DNA of 41,526 bases from Candidatus Nealsonbacteria bacterium (GTDB lineage: Bacteria > Patescibacteriota > Minisyncoccia > Minisyncoccales > JAGMDC01), in NCBI GenBank assembly GCA_030612885.1, contig JAUWMZ010000006.1, positions 1-41,526 on the forward strand, given 5' to 3'. Positions within the stretch are counted from its first letter, which is position 1, and every line of letters starts with the position of its first letter. Below, piece by piece: positions 1-28,843 of this stretch. Below the pieces are notes generated by a model. The model was not told the DNA's origin. It saw only the letters and a list, made by a program, of their open reading frames with translations, and made no database searches. Made by a program: the position numbers and the translations under genes.

Positions 1-357
1 GCTGGAACAGTCTATGATTCCCTAACAGACCTTTGCTGGGAAAAAGACGCTTCAACAAGCGGAAAAAATTGGAAAGCCGCTTTGCAGGAATGTAATGGTC
101 TGGATAGTATTTTACCTGGTACCGGTTGGCGCCTGCCAAAAACCAATGAGCTTGTTTCAATAGTAGATTACGGCTACGAAGGTTCATCTTATTGGCATAC
201 AACAAAATTTACCAACTATGAGGCTAACTACTATTGGTCCAGTACTACTAGACCTAGCAACACGAGCGGCGCCTACTTCCTGGACTTCAGCCTCGGCAAC
301 CTGCTCTACAGCAGTAAGACTGGTACTTATTATGTGGTTTGCGTTCGAGACAAATGA
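1..357 (+). CDS. DUF1566 / Lcl C-terminal (C-type-lectin-fold) domain protein, 5'-truncated by the window edge; putative DGR target
   Basis: Frame 1 is open from nt 1 (AGTVYDSLTDLCWEKD...). GWRLPKTNELVSIVDY and YWSSTT...YYVVCVRDK* are typical DUF1566 motifs. The last ~40 codons are unusually GC-rich and mostly NNC. Confidence 0.75.
   Translation, partial: AGTVYDSLTDLCWEKDASTSGKNWKAALQECNGLDSILPGTGWRLPKTNELVSIVDYGYEGSSYWHTTKFTNYEANYYWSSTTRPSNTSGAYFLDFSLGNLLYSSKTGTYYVVCVRDK
223..345 (+). other. Putative DGR variable region (VR) at the C-terminus of the DUF1566 protein; boundaries approximate because no TR is available
   Basis: Codon run aac tac..tcc..agc aac..agc ggc gcc tac ttc ctg gac ttc agc ctc ggc aac ctg ctc tac agc. 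In the 54-nt core I count about 63% G+C and 18% A, against an AT-rich background. This is the pattern expected for diversified AAC/AAT codons. Confidence 0.6.
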
Positions 358-389
358 TTCTCTGATTCCTTTCCTTAAAATAAAAATAA

Positions 390-1472
390 ATGTTTTCCTA
401 TAAAAACCTATACAATTATTATCTTAAATGCAGAAGAGGTAAAAGGAATACCATTAATGCCTTGAAATTTGAGCTTAACGCAGAGGAAAACCTTTTGAGA
501 TTGGAAGAGGAATTAGAAAGCCGCGCCTATAAACCCTCAAGATTGATTTATTTCATAATTGAAAAACCAAAACCGAGAGAGATATTCGCTTCTGATTTTA
601 GAGACCGCGTGGTTCATCATATTTTGATAAACCGCTTAGAACCAATCTGGGAACCGAAATTCATTTATGACTCCTACGCCTGCCGTCAAGGAAAAGGAAC
701 ACACCGGGCAGTTGCCAGATTGCAAGCTTTTACCAGAAAGATTTCTTTAAACGGAGAAAAACCAGCTTTTTTTATGAAGTTAGACATTAAAAGCTTTTTT
801 GTCAGCATTGACCGCAAGATACTTTATAATTTGATTAAAAAGGAGATTAAAGACGAAAACATTTTATGGCTTATAAAGGTGATTATATTCTATGAATGCA
901 CTAAAAATTTTGTTTTTAAAGGAAATGAAAAACTGAAAAAATTAATACCTTATCAGAAATCTTTATTCCAAAACGAAGGCAGCGGCAAGGGACTGCCCAT
1001 CGGAAATTTAACCAGCCAGTTTTTTGCCAATATTTATCTCAACCAGATAGACCAATTTATTAAGCATAATTTAAAATGCAGATATTATATTCGCTATGTT
1101 GACGACTTTGTATTATTGGATAGAAACAAAAATCAGCTGGTAAAATGGAAAACAGCGATAGACAATTTTTTAAAAAAAGAATTAAATATAGTTCTTAATC
1201 CCAAGAAACAAAGCATTTCGCTTATAACAAATGGAATAAATTTTTTAGGATATATTATAAGGCCTAATTATATTTTAGTTAGAAAAAGAGTGGTTAACAA
1301 TTTTAAAAGGAAACTTTTTGAAGCAGAAAGAAAAATAAAAAATAGAGAATTTTTAGATTGGGGTTTACTCCAAGCCACCTTTAATAGCTATTTTGCTCAT
1401 TTTAATCATGCCAATAGCTATGGATTAAAAGAAAAATTTACATTAAAATTAAATCAGTGTTATAATAATTAA
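390..1472 (+). CDS. Reverse transcriptase, diversity-generating retroelement (DGR) type
   Basis: 360 aa. FRDRVVHHIL, DSYACRQGKGTH, LPIGNLTSQFFANIYL (nt 999-1019; the [ILV]GxxxSQ motif distinguishes DGR RTs from the QGxxxSP of group II intron RTs) and the YVDD catalytic box (nt 1095-1106). Confidence 0.88.
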   Translation: MFSYKNLYNYYLKCRRGKRNTINALKFELNAEENLLRLEEELESRAYKPSRLIYFIIEKPKPREIFASDFRDRVVHHILINRLEPIWEPKFIYDSYACRQGKGTHRAVARLQAFTRKISLNGEKPAFFMKLDIKSFFVSIDRKILYNLIKKEIKDENILWLIKVIIFYECTKNFVFKGNEKLKKLIPYQKSLFQNEGSGKGLPIGNLTSQFFANIYLNQIDQFIKHNLKCRYYIRYVDDFVLLDRNKNQLVKWKTAIDNFLKKELNIVLNPKKQSISLITNGINFLGYIIRPNYILVRKRVVNNFKRKLFEAERKIKNREFLDWGLLQATFNSYFAHFNHANSYGLKEKFTLKLNQCYNN

Positions 1473-7188: not shown

Positions 7189-7578
7189 ATGCCGCGTATA
7201 GCAGGGGTTAATATCCCGGAAAACAAACAAATAGAAATTGCTTTAACCTATATTTATGGAATAGGTTCGTCTTTGGCTAGAAAAATTTTAGCAGAAGCCA
7301 AAATTGATCCTTACAATCAGGCTTCAAAGCTAACTCCGGAACAAATTAATTTACTTAGGGAAATTATTGAAAAGAATTATAAAATTGAGGGAGATCTACG
7401 ACGGGAGAGAATAGTGGCTATAAAACGTCTGAAAGATATTAGTTGTTTAAGAGGAATTCGCCACATCAAAGGTTTGCCAGTAAGAGGCCAAAGGACTAAA
7501 AGTAATAGTAGAACTATTCGCGGTAATGTGAGAAAAACAGTTGGTAGTGGAAGAAAACCTGCCCCAACACCAAAATAA
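7189..7578 (+). CDS. rpsM: 30S ribosomal protein S13
   Basis: MPRIAGVNIPENKQIEIALTYIYGIG... Confidence 0.95.
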   Translation: MPRIAGVNIPENKQIEIALTYIYGIGSSLARKILAEAKIDPYNQASKLTPEQINLLREIIEKNYKIEGDLRRERIVAIKRLKDISCLRGIRHIKGLPVRGQRTKSNSRTIRGNVRKTVGSGRKPAPTPK

Positions 7579-7579
7579 C

Positions 7580-8032
7580 ATGGGTAAGAAACGTATTATT
7601 CAAAAAACCGAAAAAGAGTTGATTGAAGAAAGAGAGAAAGTAGACGCAGCTGTAAAAAAAGAAGCAAAAATTCAACCTTCTAAAAAAGTGAAAGAAGGTA
7701 GAGTTTGTATTGCTTCCTCTTATAATAATACGATTATTAGTTTAACTGATTTAGAGGGAAATATTTTAACTTGGGCAAGCGCTGGTAATATTGGCTTCAA
7801 GGGAACAAAAAAAGCCACTCCTTTTGCTGCTTCAAAAGTGGCTGAGGCATTGGTTCAGCGGGCTAGAAAAATAGGGATAGAAAGAGTGCAAATAATAGTA
7901 AAAGGTATTGGCAGCGGCAGAGATTCAGCCATTAGATCATTAGCCAACAAAGGTCTTGATATTCTATCTATTGAAGATGTTACGCCTATACCTCATAACG
8001 GATGCAGGCCTAGAAAAGCAAGAAGAGTCTAA
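7580..8032 (+). CDS. rpsK: 30S ribosomal protein S11 (with N-terminal K/E-rich extension)
   Basis: GRVCIASSYNNTIISLTDLEGNILTWASAGNIGFKGTKKATPFAA...CRPRKARRV. ATG at 7580 chosen; the ORF-track start at 7541 overlaps rpsM. Confidence 0.93.
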   Translation: MGKKRIIQKTEKELIEEREKVDAAVKKEAKIQPSKKVKEGRVCIASSYNNTIISLTDLEGNILTWASAGNIGFKGTKKATPFAASKVAEALVQRARKIGIERVQIIVKGIGSGRDSAIRSLANKGLDILSIEDVTPIPHNGCRPRKARRV

Positions 8033-8093
8033 CCACTAATAAAATCACGAATAAAAATCACGAATATCCACTAATAATTATTCGTGATAATTT
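8033..8093. repeat. AT-rich imperfect palindrome (cactaat / atcacgaat units) in the rpsK-rpsD spacer
   Basis: ccactaataaaatcacgaataaaaatcacgaatatccactaataattattcgtgataattt. atcacgaata pairs with tattcgtgat. Confidence 0.65.
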
Positions 8094-8750
8094 GTGAGAA
8101 GATTAGTGAAAATATTTGTGGTAGTAAACAATAAATGTAAAATTTGTCGTAGAGCAGGAGTTAAACTTTTTTTAAAAGGGGAACGTTGTTTTTCTCCGAA
8201 ATGCGCAATGATAAAAAAACCTTATTCGCCGGGCAGGAAACTGAAAAGAAAAGTTCGGACTCTTTCTGAGTATGGAAAAGAATTAAAAGAAAAACAAAAG
8301 CTTAAGAATTGGTATAATTTAAGTGAAGAGCAATTCAGTAAATATGTAAAAAAGGCATTAGGAAAAAGAGGAAAAGTAGAGGATGCTGGAACTTTTCTTA
8401 TAAAAGAGTTAGAGAGCCGTTTTGATAATGTAATTTTCAAATTAGGCTGGGCTTCTTCCCATTCTCAAGCTCGTCAAATGATTTCTCACAAGCATTTTTT
8501 AGTTAACGGAAAAATAGTTAATATACCTTCTTATAGCTTAAAAAAAGGAGACAAAATCATTATTCGTCCTTCTTCTCTTAAATTAAATATTTTTCAGAAT
8601 CTTCCTACTACTTTAAAAAAATATCAACCCCCTTCTTGGTTAGAGCTTAATTTAGAAAGGATGGAAGGAAAAGTTAAAGAAGAACCCTTAGTAGAAGAAT
8701 CAGATTTACCAGCTGAAATTTCTATAATCTTTGAATATTACTCAAGATAA
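8094..8750 (+). CDS. rpsD: 30S ribosomal protein S4
   Basis: CKICRRAGVKLFLKGERCFSPKCAMIKKPYSPG and an S4 domain. Start uncertain: the GTG at 8118 gives a more canonical N-terminus than 8094. Confidence 0.9.
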   Translation: MRRLVKIFVVVNNKCKICRRAGVKLFLKGERCFSPKCAMIKKPYSPGRKLKRKVRTLSEYGKELKEKQKLKNWYNLSEEQFSKYVKKALGKRGKVEDAGTFLIKELESRFDNVIFKLGWASSHSQARQMISHKHFLVNGKIVNIPSYSLKKGDKIIIRPSSLKLNIFQNLPTTLKKYQPPSWLELNLERMEGKVKEEPLVEESDLPAEISIIFEYYSR

Positions 8751-8879
8751 AATTTTAAAAATTTTCAATTTTCAATTTTCAATTTTCATTCAATTTTCAA
8801 TTTAATAATTTTCAATTAGAAATTAAAGAATTAGAAATTTATTAGAAATTAGAAATTAGAAATTAGAAATTTAATTTGT
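8751..8879. repeat. AT-rich heptamer arrays ((aattttc)n then (agaaatt)n) filling the rpsD-rpoA spacer
   Basis: aattttcaattttcaattttcattcaattttcaattt...attagaaattagaaattagaaattagaaattt. Period 7; the two arms are imperfect inverted copies. Confidence 0.75.
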
Positions 8880-9677
8880 ATGATTTCTTTACCCGACAAA
8901 ATAAAAATTATTGAAAAAAAAGATAACTGGACCCATTTTCAAATTCAAGCCCTTTATCCAGGTTATGGAGTTACTATTGGAAATAGTTTGAGAAGGGTTC
9001 TTCTTTCCTCGTTACAGGGGGCAGCTGTTACGCAGGTGAAAATTAAGGGAGTTTCTCATGAGTTTTCTGTTATTCCCGGTGTCTTAGAAGATACAGTTTC
9101 AATTTTATTAAACTTAAAACAATTAAGATTTAAGGTTTACAGTGATGAACCACAGAAGGCGATTCTTTCGGTAAAAGGTGAAAAAAAAGTAAAAGGTTCT
9201 GATTTTCAACTACCTTCTCAATTGTCTTTAATAAACAAAGATGCTTTTGTAGCTGCTTTGACTGATAAGAAAGCGGAATTAGAAATGGAGATTGTAGTTG
9301 AGAAAGGATTTGGTTATGAACCAGTAGAATGGAGAAAAAAAGAAAAGTTAGAAATAGGCGAGATTCCTCTTGATGCTATTTTTACTCCGGTGAGAAAGGT
9401 TAGTTTTAATGTAGAGAATGTTAGGGTAGAGGAGAGAACAGATTTTGACAGTTTAGAGTTAGGGATTGAGACTGATGGAACCATTACTCCGGAACAAGCT
9501 CTTTTTCAGGCATCTGAAATTTTAGTTAAGCACTTTTCTTTATTTGTAGATGTCTTTAAAGAAAAAGAGGAAGCGAAGCCATCAGAAGTCGAAAAGCCAG
9601 TCAAAAAGAAGAAACCTGCAAAGGCAAAAACTAAAACTACGATACAAAAGAAGAAAAAGAAAACACAAAAGAAATAA
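8880..9677 (+). CDS. rpoA: DNA-directed RNA polymerase alpha subunit, N-terminal domain only, with lysine-rich C-terminal tail
   Basis: YPGYGVTIGNSLRRVLLSSLQGAAVT, EDTVSILLNLKQLRF, ERTDFDSLELGIETDGTITPEQAL. The protein ends KEKEEAKPSEVEKPVKKKKPAKAKTKTTIQKKKKKTQKK at 265 aa, with no recognisable alpha-CTD. Confidence 0.88.
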   Translation: MISLPDKIKIIEKKDNWTHFQIQALYPGYGVTIGNSLRRVLLSSLQGAAVTQVKIKGVSHEFSVIPGVLEDTVSILLNLKQLRFKVYSDEPQKAILSVKGEKKVKGSDFQLPSQLSLINKDAFVAALTDKKAELEMEIVVEKGFGYEPVEWRKKEKLEIGEIPLDAIFTPVRKVSFNVENVRVEERTDFDSLELGIETDGTITPEQALFQASEILVKHFSLFVDVFKEKEEAKPSEVEKPVKKKKPAKAKTKTTIQKKKKKTQKK

Positions 9678-9702
9678 CAGGTATTTAGAAATCTACAGTA
9701 TT

Positions 9703-10053
9703 ATGCGTAAACGAAAAGAAGGAAGAAAACTTTCAAGAAAAAAAAATCAAAGAAAGGCCTTATTAAAAACACTAGCTAGTGCTCTTATTTTAAATGAGAA
9801 AATAAAAACCACTGAAGCGAAAAGTAAGGAAGTTTCTAAATTTATTGAAAAAAAAATTACTAAAGCAAAAAAAGGTGATTTAACTGCGAGAAGATTATTA
9901 AATCAATTTTTTTCTCCTAAAATAGTCAAGAAACTTGTAGATGAGATTGGACCAAGATATAAAGGGAGAAAAGGAGGGTATACCCGGATTATTAAGCTAG
10001 GCCCAAGAAAATCAGATGGAGCAAGAATGGCAATAATTGAATTTGTAAAATAA
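9703..10053 (+). CDS. rplQ: 50S ribosomal protein L17
   Basis: MRKRKEGRKLSRKKNQRKALLKTLASALILNEKIKTTEAKSKE...GGYTRIIKLGPRKSDGARMAIIEFV. ATG at 9703. Confidence 0.92.
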   Translation: MRKRKEGRKLSRKKNQRKALLKTLASALILNEKIKTTEAKSKEVSKFIEKKITKAKKGDLTARRLLNQFFSPKIVKKLVDEIGPRYKGRKGGYTRIIKLGPRKSDGARMAIIEFVK

Positions 10054-10057
10054 TTTT

Positions 10058-10411
10058 ATGGAAAGAAACACTCATACCATTGATGCCACTAATAAAGTTC
10101 TCGGAAGATTAGCTACTCAGATAGCGGTGCTGTTGCGTGGTAAGCACAAACCTGATTTTGTTCCCTATAAAGATATGGGAGATTTTGTTGTGGTAAAAAA
10201 TGTTGATAAAATTAAAATTACTGGAAAAAAAATGGAGCAAAAAGTTTATTACCATCACAGCGGTTTTATGGGCGGCTTGAAAGAAACTCCTCTTAAAAAA
10301 CTTTTTAAAGAAAAACCTGAAGAAGTTTTAAAAAAAGCAGTTTTTGGAATGCTGCCTAATAATAAATTGAGGGCTGAGATAATAAAACGTTTAAAAATAA
10401 TCAACGAATAA
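10058..10411 (+). CDS. rplM: 50S ribosomal protein L13 (short)
   Basis: IDATNKVLGRLATQIAVLLRGKHKPDFVPYKDMGDFVVVKNVDKIKITGKK...YYHHSGFMGG. Confidence 0.92.
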   Translation: MERNTHTIDATNKVLGRLATQIAVLLRGKHKPDFVPYKDMGDFVVVKNVDKIKITGKKMEQKVYYHHSGFMGGLKETPLKKLFKEKPEEVLKKAVFGMLPNNKLRAEIIKRLKIINE

Positions 10412-28546: not shown

Positions 28547-28617
28547 AGCGGGGTGGAGAAGTAGTATCTTGCCAGCCTCATAAGCTGGAGACCCAGGCGC
28601 AATTCCTGGCCCCGCAA
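28547..28617 (+). tRNA. tRNA (anticodon CAT), initiator-like acceptor stem, non-canonical D and T loops
   Basis: Hand fold: acceptor GCGGGG/CCCCGC as I recall it for E. coli tRNA-fMet, with an A1xA72 mismatch; D stem GAGA/TCTT; anticodon arm ccagc-CTCATAA-gctgg; T arm ccagg-CGCAATT-cctgg. No encoded CCA. 71 nt. Confidence 0.6.
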
Positions 28618-28624
28618 CAAATTT

Positions 28625-28697
28625 GGCGGTGTAGCTCAGTGGTTAGAGCAATGCCTTCATAAGGCAGAGGTCGCTGGTTCAAATCCAGCCATCGCTA
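28625..28697 (+). tRNA. tRNA (anticodon CAT): elongator Met or Ile2 (lysidine)
   Basis: GGCGGTG-TA-GCTCAGTGGTTAGAGC-A-atgcc-TTCATAA-ggcag-aggtc-GCTGG-TTCAAAT-CCAGC-catcgct-a. Canonical D and T loops. Confidence 0.85.
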
Positions 28698-28768
28698 TAA
28701 GTTTTTTCAGAAAGCTTTTAGTCATTGGGGACGTAGATCAATTGATTAGATTGTTTCCTACCAAAAAT

Positions 28769-28843
28769 GCAGCGGTAGCTTAGTTGGTTTAAAGCGCCGC
28801 CCTGTCACGGCGGAGATCGTGGGTTCAAATCCCATTCGCTGCG
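28769..28843 (+). tRNA. tRNA-Asp (anticodon GTC)
   Basis: GCAGCGG-TA-GCTTAGTTGGTTTAAAGC-G-ccgcc-CTGTCAC-ggcgg-agatc-GTGGG-TTCAAAT-CCCAT-tcgctgc-g. Discriminator G73. Confidence 0.88.

Follow-up and report, generated by a model that had tools for sequence, protein, structure and literature searches.

A diversity-generating retroelement in a Nealsonbacteria contig with a variable repeat beside its reverse transcriptase: possible assembly collapse of a canonical cassette

In diversity-generating retroelements (DGRs), a reverse transcriptase (RT) and the accessory protein Avd copy the RNA of a template repeat (TR) with misincorporation opposite adenines, and the cDNA replaces a variable repeat (VR) (PMC3240598, PMC5703328, 10.1101/2023.10.23.563531). 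An avd gene occurs in about 74% of DGRs and is lacking in 26% (PMC5758913). The DUF1566 domain, which is present in some DGR target proteins, has a C-type lectin (CLec) fold (PMC11661182, PMC5758913). DGRs with a DUF1566 target and an avd-TR-RT core are already well catalogued, genomes of the Candidate Phyla Radiation (CPR) included. The locus described here is at the start of contig JAUWMZ010000006.1 (assembly GCA_030612885.1) from a Candidatus Nealsonbacteria bacterium. The window, i.e., the whole stretch of DNA that was analysed, consists of positions 1–41,526 of this contig. Its first 1,472 nucleotides (nt) contain the 3' end of a DUF1566 target gene that includes a VR, and the gene for a DGR-type RT.

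The VR of this locus is found in the slot next to the RT gene where most related elements have their TR, and neither a TR nor avd is present on the contig. The explanation favoured here, with a probability of roughly 0.57, is that the element is a canonical DGR and that the contig skipped a loop with avd and the TR during assembly, by which VR and TR were merged into one copy. The organism most probably carries an ordinary cassette in the order target (DUF1566 with a C-terminal VR), bAvd, TR and RT, rather than a newly built element, and the skipped loop with avd and the TR would be present in its genome. The features of the locus are as follows.

Positions 1–357, + strand: 3' part of the DGR target gene, 118 codons plus the stop; the gene is truncated at the contig edge, and this part encodes a complete DUF1566/Lcl_C C-terminal domain.
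Positions 220–348, + strand: VR, EANYYWSSTTRPSNTSGAYFLDFSLGNLLYSSKTGTYYVVCVR, collinear with the TRs of relatives; diversified core at approximately 250–333, NNC codon run at 256–312.
Positions 354–408, + strand: putative exact repeat of at least 55 nt that covers the end of the target gene with its stop codon, the whole spacer (32 nt) and the opening 19 nt of the RT gene, deduced from the starts of two contigs of other assemblies (L001 and L162, below).
Positions 358–389, + strand: A/T-rich spacer of 32 nt from the target stop to the RT start; its position matches the TR-to-RT linker of relatives.
Positions 390–1472, + strand: DGR-type RT, 360 amino acids (aa), apparently intact, with GLPIGNLTSQFFAN and RYVDDF motifs and a match to Pfam RVT_1 (E 2.4e-23).

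The RT retains all 94 columns that are invariant in a 22-sequence alignment. Its best match in the PDB is 8ub7_A, a chain of 328 aa labelled 'Reverse transcriptase' that has eight sister entries, with an E value of 5.5e-46. The best group II intron RT in this comparison has an E value of 2.7e-15, approximately 30 orders of magnitude weaker. From its chain length and the cryo-EM work of 2023-24, we take 8ub7_A to be the Bordetella phage bRT. The strongest argument for the DGR class is context, in that homologues with 39–59% identity to the window RT are flanked by TR/VR pairs in which at least 80% of the mismatches are at the adenines of one copy. Judged from these sequence comparisons, the window RT is a DGR-clade RT. 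An earlier note on this DNA had called the locus a DGR and had reported the two RT motifs in a 360-aa ORF; both points hold, as a DGR-clade RT is found beside a DUF1566 target that ends in a used VR.

The target open reading frame (ORF) is frame 1 of positions 1–357. It runs off the contig start and ends with the TGA stop at 355–357. Pfam PF07603 (Lcl_C/DUF1566) matches this segment with an E value of 1.9e-25 over profile positions 1–117 of 117, and the VR is within the last 45 codons. On the 5' side of the VR the window continues as a genuine DUF1566 domain rather than as avd. The TR consensus of relatives that aligns to the window VR reads ..NNYWSSTTNANNT.NAWNVN.NNGNVNNNNK.NNNYV..VR. Mismatches of the window copy to the TRs of relatives are concentrated at adenines, with approximately 48% of the TR adenines mismatched, vs. 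10–15% when TRs of different species are compared with each other. The window copy has four Asn residues, vs. 9–24 in the TRs. NNC codons make up 16 of the 19 codons at 256–312 and 17 of the 78 codons upstream. The earlier note had described the last ~40 codons as an NNC run, which is overstated, as C-ending codons are 19 of these 40; the G+C-rich core of 54 nt that it described is present at 261–314, the richest 54-nt stretch, with 63% G+C compared with 28–40% across the remaining window (in 1-kb steps). The stretch is beyond chance, as shown by its collinearity with the TRs of relatives and its mismatches at their adenines, and the repeat copy in the window is a VR and not a TR. Because the copy is a VR, having few Asn residues and adenine-biased mismatches, a TR must exist or must have existed recently. 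By analogy with described DGRs, AAY codons in the ligand-binding face of the target would be the ones that are rewritten.

The window contains no second copy of positions 1–389 on either strand, as determined by blastn with a word size of 7 and by scanning without gaps while mismatches at adenines of the template were tolerated, and an adenine-biased TR/VR pair is not found within the 41.5 kb. There is also no second copy of positions 354–408 and no second DUF1566 domain in the window. A hidden Markov model (HMM) of the Avd proteins of 30 relatives, compared with all six-frame stop-to-stop segments of at least 30 aa, gives a best E value of 0.13, and the accessory avd gene is thus absent from this contig. 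The target stop and the RT start are separated by 32 nt (358–389), and the RT stop is 3 nt from the following ORF, which starts at 1476. The two distances, the lack of a second VR copy in the 41.5 kb and the lack of an Avd-like ORF are all as the earlier note gave them. RNAalifold shows no consensus pairs in 26 aligned regions that extend from the TR end to 130 nt into the RT. Inverted repeats around 365–495 are weak, and no convincing short inverted or direct repeats are found in 150–520.

Searches with the target itself returned little. The 118-aa fragment has a single homologous match, at 45% identity, and an exact look-up of the fragment finds no record elsewhere. In IMG/VR, neither the constant region of the target nor positions 354–408 gave a match. 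Since the target searches are nearly empty, the upstream part of the target gene and the sequence that follows its VR are not recoverable.

The arrangement of related elements was determined from 160 related RT loci, 80 from species-representative genomes and 80 from metagenomes, of which 154 were usable. Each locus was searched for adenine-biased repeat pairs. RT homologues number in the thousands and the 120 best were listed. In a separate scan of GTDB genomes, the species-representative relatives among the matches listed have RT identities of 57% or less. An Asn-codon-rich TR is directly against the RT start in 97 of the 154 usable loci, a count that combines loci with a detected repeat pair and loci with an Asn-rich segment only, the VR being off-contig. 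The dominant layout is target(VR)-bAvd-TR-RT, with approximately 500–900 nt from VR to TR. This interval holds an ORF of 113–145 aa, and two examples match Pfam bAvd (PF22296). Relative to the start of the RT match, the homology of 111 TR/VR pairs stops at positions from -135 to +13, the median being 15 nt before it. Many of the best RT homologues are annotated as longer ORFs with an N-terminal extension that matches the last 42 positions of Lcl_C; the N-terminus of the P0004 RT ORF, for example, reads 'VQSNNYWSSTTNANNTENAWNVNMNDGNVNNNNKSNNNYVWPVRGDNDALQLFSYENIY'. By its residues, this extension is the Asn-codon-rich TR translated in frame into the RT. All long contigs that were checked (L010, L017, L049 and L052; 0.4–5.7 Mb) have the canonical layout.

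A neighbour-joining (NJ) tree places the window RT in a clade of 78 leaves; of the other 77, 68 have a TR that abuts the RT. The nearest neighbours of the window RT by distance are all loci of this type. The partner of the window RT in the tree is L073, an archaeal locus; this pairing is taken as long-branch noise, given that by distance the window RT is closest to loci where the TR abuts the RT. A minority layout, target-RT-TR, is found in L015, L016, L092 and L096. It has a gap of 125–420 nt between VR and RT, and the TR follows the RT; the window has neither of these traits. The earlier note was correct that the TR and avd are missing from the contig, but its reading, that the TR is upstream of nt 1 or in a non-canonical or remote arrangement, is not supported as the leading one, as the TR of the relatives abuts the RT, the window has its VR in that slot, and two independent assemblies break inside the junction (below). 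A position upstream of nt 1 is disfavoured for the TR, since none of the relatives has its TR beyond the far side of the target.

Several other properties of the relatives were observed. RT homologues of approximately 490–566 aa (P0014, P0015, P0004, P0082 and dozens more) have a C-terminal extension of about 130 aa that matches MutS_I (PF01624), with E values down to 1.6e-07. Wu et al. 2018 (PMC5758913) described such an extension for no more than three RTs. In the 120 best RT homologues listed it is common, and the window RT, at 360 aa, is without it. A (GA)n tract, translated as 'RERERERE', is directly 5' of the RT in L015, L020, L024, L032, L090, L096, L099, L114, L120, L123 and L144. Many relatives with the target-RT-TR order or with a TR on the opposite strand have this tract, and it is absent from the window and from loci where the TR abuts the RT. 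Two or more TTTGATTATTT-like words are found within 85 nt downstream of the VR in 6 of 111 VR flanks (L004 9138+, L014 9206+, L017 13961+, L106 3246+, L107 1750+ and L143 247+), vs. 0 of 111 TR flanks. These words often precede a G+C-rich hairpin and may represent a target-side recognition element or a terminator element; they are not present in the window.

An RT protein identical to that of the window is found on other contigs, and two independent assemblies stop inside the VR-RT junction. One of them, Logan contig SRR12623518_10522 (L001), matches the window with 100% identity from position 379, where it begins. ENA contig ERZ4220366 NODE_1748 (L162), which has a SPAdes-style name and a coverage of 5.2, starts at window position 354. 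L162 differs from the window by two single-nucleotide polymorphisms over 13.6 kb, at 10305 and 12988 (T/A and A/T), and is otherwise collinear. These two differences show that L162 comes from a separate data set, and that the same nearly clonal strain is present in at least two data sets. Positions 1–353 are absent from both of these assemblies, and one VR sequence is known for the organism. An exact-DNA scan of JGI metagenome contigs with the 5' end of the RT gave no match; with the empty IMG/VR scans, this indicates that neither collection includes the organism.

The positions of the two starts are related to the way in which the contigs were built. When a contig emerges from a branching repeat of a de Bruijn graph, it starts k-1 (node-centric) or k (SPAdes) positions before the first unique base, and the default final k of metaSPAdes is 55. 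Logan uses 31-mers and Minia3 (PMC12424806). The start at 379 equals 409-30, as for k=31, and the start at 354 equals 409-55, with k=55 assumed. Both starts are accounted for if one exact repeat covers at least 354–408 and its copies diverge at 409. Divergence on the left side was rejected as the cause, because it would give an identical start for any k and the two starts differ. Positions 354–408 would thus have a second context in the samples, either in the same genome or in a co-occurring close relative. With the repeat covering 354–408, the path of the window from VR to RT passes through the repeat.

Two related contigs display a junction of the same kind. L094 (Ga0315275_10212757, 2.2 kb) has a single repeat copy that abuts the RT. 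The 5' half of this copy is target-like and is diversified at adenines, and the 3' half is identical to the Asn-rich TR of L089, a 95%-identical relative whose repeat is a pure TR. A full target-avd-TR-RT-target2 cassette is present in L091, which is 85% identical to L094; through its one shared copy, L094 can be aligned with L091 on the VR side as well as on the TR side. In L157 (SESD01013906.1, 2.8 kb), a fully diversified copy abuts the RT, and after it comes the linker that is found behind the TR in L159. Both contigs are similar to the window in having one repeat copy, partly or fully diversified, that abuts the RT with a TR-type linker, and in having no avd; both are short, low-coverage metagenome contigs. 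The crossover is mid-repeat in L094, where the 3' half is still Asn-rich, vs. at the 3' end in the window and in L157. With the window included, there are three contigs with a merged VR and TR among the approximately 160 related loci. In addition, 14 of the 160 related contigs have an end no more than 171 nt upstream of the RT, and N-run gaps are found beside the RT start or the TR in L035, L043 and L060. Two further irregularities at this edge were observed, a 59-nt truncated TR fused to RT residue 30 in L056 (5159–5217), and in L060 a duplicated RT start followed by the N-run and then the TR.

The presence of the VR in the TR slot means that exactly one repeat period, consisting of the VR flank, avd and the TR interior, is missing. 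The loss of one period is the expected outcome if an assembler, or recombination, leaves a single copy of two direct repeats. In an assembly collapse, VR and TR would share an exact stretch of at least 354–408, and at this shared repeat the assembler would pass from the VR straight into the downstream flank of the TR, which leads to the RT. The jump would skip a loop of about 0.6–0.9 kb with avd and the TR interior, and the TR slot would then be filled by a diversified VR at a distance of 32 nt from the RT. The missing avd and TR would belong between nt 357 and 390, rather than 5' of nt 1. This reading is favoured because the TR abuts the RT in 97 of 154 relatives and in 68 of 77 of the clade, and because the unit absent from the window corresponds to the VR-TR interval of relatives (500–900 nt, with bAvd). 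It is further favoured because two assemblies break as an out-branch at 409 predicts for k=31 and k=55, because L094 and L157 show the same merge and related contigs are fragile at the upstream edge of the RT, and because long contigs are canonical and the window RT is intact. Several points weigh against it. The loop of avd and TR is deduced and was never observed for this organism, and for the ENA contig the k of 55 is an assumption based on the SPAdes defaults. At approximately 5x coverage contig ends may be coverage gaps; between L001, whose last position is 7143, and the next Logan contig, whose first is 7157, there is no overlap. The proposed repeat reaches 19 nt into the RT, where the maximum in relatives is +13 and the median is -15. 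The graph would look the same if a strain or relative present alongside diverged at 409, and an assembler with a larger k may have had reads that truly link VR to RT.

The same loss of one repeat period could be real. In this alternative, homologous recombination between VR and TR deleted avd and the TR in some or all cells, which left a frozen target allele and an orphan RT, i.e., a recently dead DGR. An exact identity of at least 55 nt is enough for RecA-type recombination. A shared exact stretch of at least this length is deduced at the junction, and such a deletion yields exactly the sequence observed; an intact RT fits a recent event, and the L094 and L157 hybrids could be the same event in other lineages. 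However, loss throughout the population leaves no second context for 354–408 and gives no reason for branching at 409, so that the branch limits such a deletion, at best, to a sub-population beside intact cassettes. Moreover, all three hybrids are on short or low-coverage contigs and none on long ones, and a true deletion is considered unlikely. A non-canonical layout, in which the target abuts the RT and a TR elsewhere, with or without avd, has its own downstream flank that copies 354–408, is distinctly unlikely. The deposited contig does read this way, relatives with another layout exist (target-RT-TR in L015, L016, L092 and L096), 26% of DGRs are without avd (PMC5758913), and the second context of 354–408 is deduced and not located. 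Against this, the target-RT-TR relatives have a VR-RT gap of 125–420 nt and a TR after the RT, whereas the RT stop in the window is 3 nt from the next gene and there is no TR in the 40 kb downstream. A TR away from the RT and beyond the far side of the target is found in none of the 160 relatives, and the clade of the window RT is the one where the TR abuts the RT. For a remote TR, it is also difficult to account for a flank copy that extends over the first 19 nt of the RT.

A self-templating element with a single repeat, in which the VR-RT transcript is the template and there is no separate TR and no Avd, is very improbable. The bare anatomy, a VR in the TR slot beside an intact RT, and its recurrence in L157 are what speak for it. 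Such a repeat should lose its adenines, yet 223–345 retains 23% A, including AAC, AGC, TAC and GAC codons. The pristine Asn-rich 3' half of L094 agrees with a crossover rather than with self-mutagenesis, and this reading does not account for the branch at 409. Moreover, reverse transcription in known DGRs depends on Avd and on RNA elements that flank the TR on either side (10.1101/2023.10.23.563531). Taken in a broader form, the possibility that the contig is correct as deposited, i.e., a natural DGR with a diversified VR abutting the RT and no local TR or Avd, whose template is either a remote TR with a copy of the RT 5' flank or the VR-RT transcript, is improbable. If such a TR-less and Avd-less layout were natural, the same arrangement would have recurred independently in L157 and L094. 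The possibility that 354–408 represents a priming site for cDNA that was copied into the flank of the VR was rejected, because the spacer of BPP-1 is not reverse-transcribed (10.1101/2023.10.23.563531). The last alternative is that the locus is not a DGR at all, and that a retron, group II intron or defence RT is by chance beside a lectin-like gene. The weak NCBIfam and PADLOC matches to group II, Drt and UG RT models are in its favour, but the NCBIfam scores are far under the cut-offs: 129.5 bits vs. 300 for group II (TIGR04416), 66 vs. 200 for Drt3a, 47 vs. 390 for Drt2 and 54 vs. 235 for retron St85. In PADLOC, a generic RT model and UG17 match best, no partner genes being close by, and the Rfam matches at the gathering threshold are three tRNAs in the window, with no group II intron RNA domains. 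With the closest structure being the 328-aa RT at E 5.5e-46, well ahead of group II RTs, and the nearest homologues carrying adenine-biased TR/VR pairs, a chance neighbour of this type is extremely improbable.

The biological weight of a collapsed canonical cassette is small, and the practical point concerns annotation. The repeat pairs of DGRs form loops in assembly graphs, such that short-read metagenome contigs may merge VR and TR and mimic DGRs without a TR and Avd. Surveys that count orphan DGR RTs, or that propose remote-TR architectures from metagenome-assembled genomes, should check for merging of VR and TR. If the arrangement were real, it would bear on the function of a DGR RT without Avd or with a distant template.

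The surrounding sequence is a housekeeping stretch with alaS, infA, an S13-S11-S4-rpoA-L17-L13 cluster and three tRNAs. The ribosomal protein/rpoA cluster (S13, S11, S4, RpoA, L17 and L13) is at 7189–10053, and the three tandem tRNA genes are at 28547–28843. The closest named matches of RpoA are from Nealsonbacteria and the Patescibacteria group, with 68–76% identity. The RpoA as called is short (265 aa), and most of its close homologues are without a match to the C-terminal domain family PF03118. Immediately downstream of the RT, a 445-aa ORF (1476–2813, + strand) has a signal-like hydrophobic N-terminus, four [AS]xSE[NT][AI]GWIxF repeats and an acidic/Pro-Ser linker. Its C-terminus has a weak match to PG_binding_1 (E 5.8e-4) that is under the cut-off, and there is no NCBIfam match. 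This ORF was rejected as a second DGR target, since it has no VR-like repeat.

Three groups of described systems can be compared with this locus. The DGRs of CPR bacteria (PMC5758913) and of DPANN archaea (Paul et al. 2015, PMC4372165) are similar to it in having an AT-rich, small-genome host and a DGR among housekeeping genes, and apart from the TR and avd that are absent from the window, nothing separates them. In the DGR of Bordetella phage BPP-1, which consists of bRT, Avd, a TR RNA and the mtd target, the mechanism is presumed, by analogy, to be the same. The window target domain is DUF1566 and not Mtd, and the contig has no TR or Avd. In the clade of the window RT the TR ends approximately 15 nt before the RT, which places the downstream cis-RNA in overlap with the RT coding region, in contrast to BPP-1. 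The third group, to which the dominant layout of the relatives belongs, is Architecture B1 (avd-TR-RT) with a category 'd'/CLec2 DUF1566 target, as described by Wu et al. 2018 (PMC5758913), e.g., the DGR of Legionella pneumophila. The window differs from this class in that its contig is without avd and a TR and has the VR in the TR slot, and in its Patescibacteria/CPR host. It has in common with the class an RT with [ILV]GxxxSQ and YVDD motifs, a C-terminal VR of NNC/NNT codons, and relatives that have bAvd and a TR abutting the RT.

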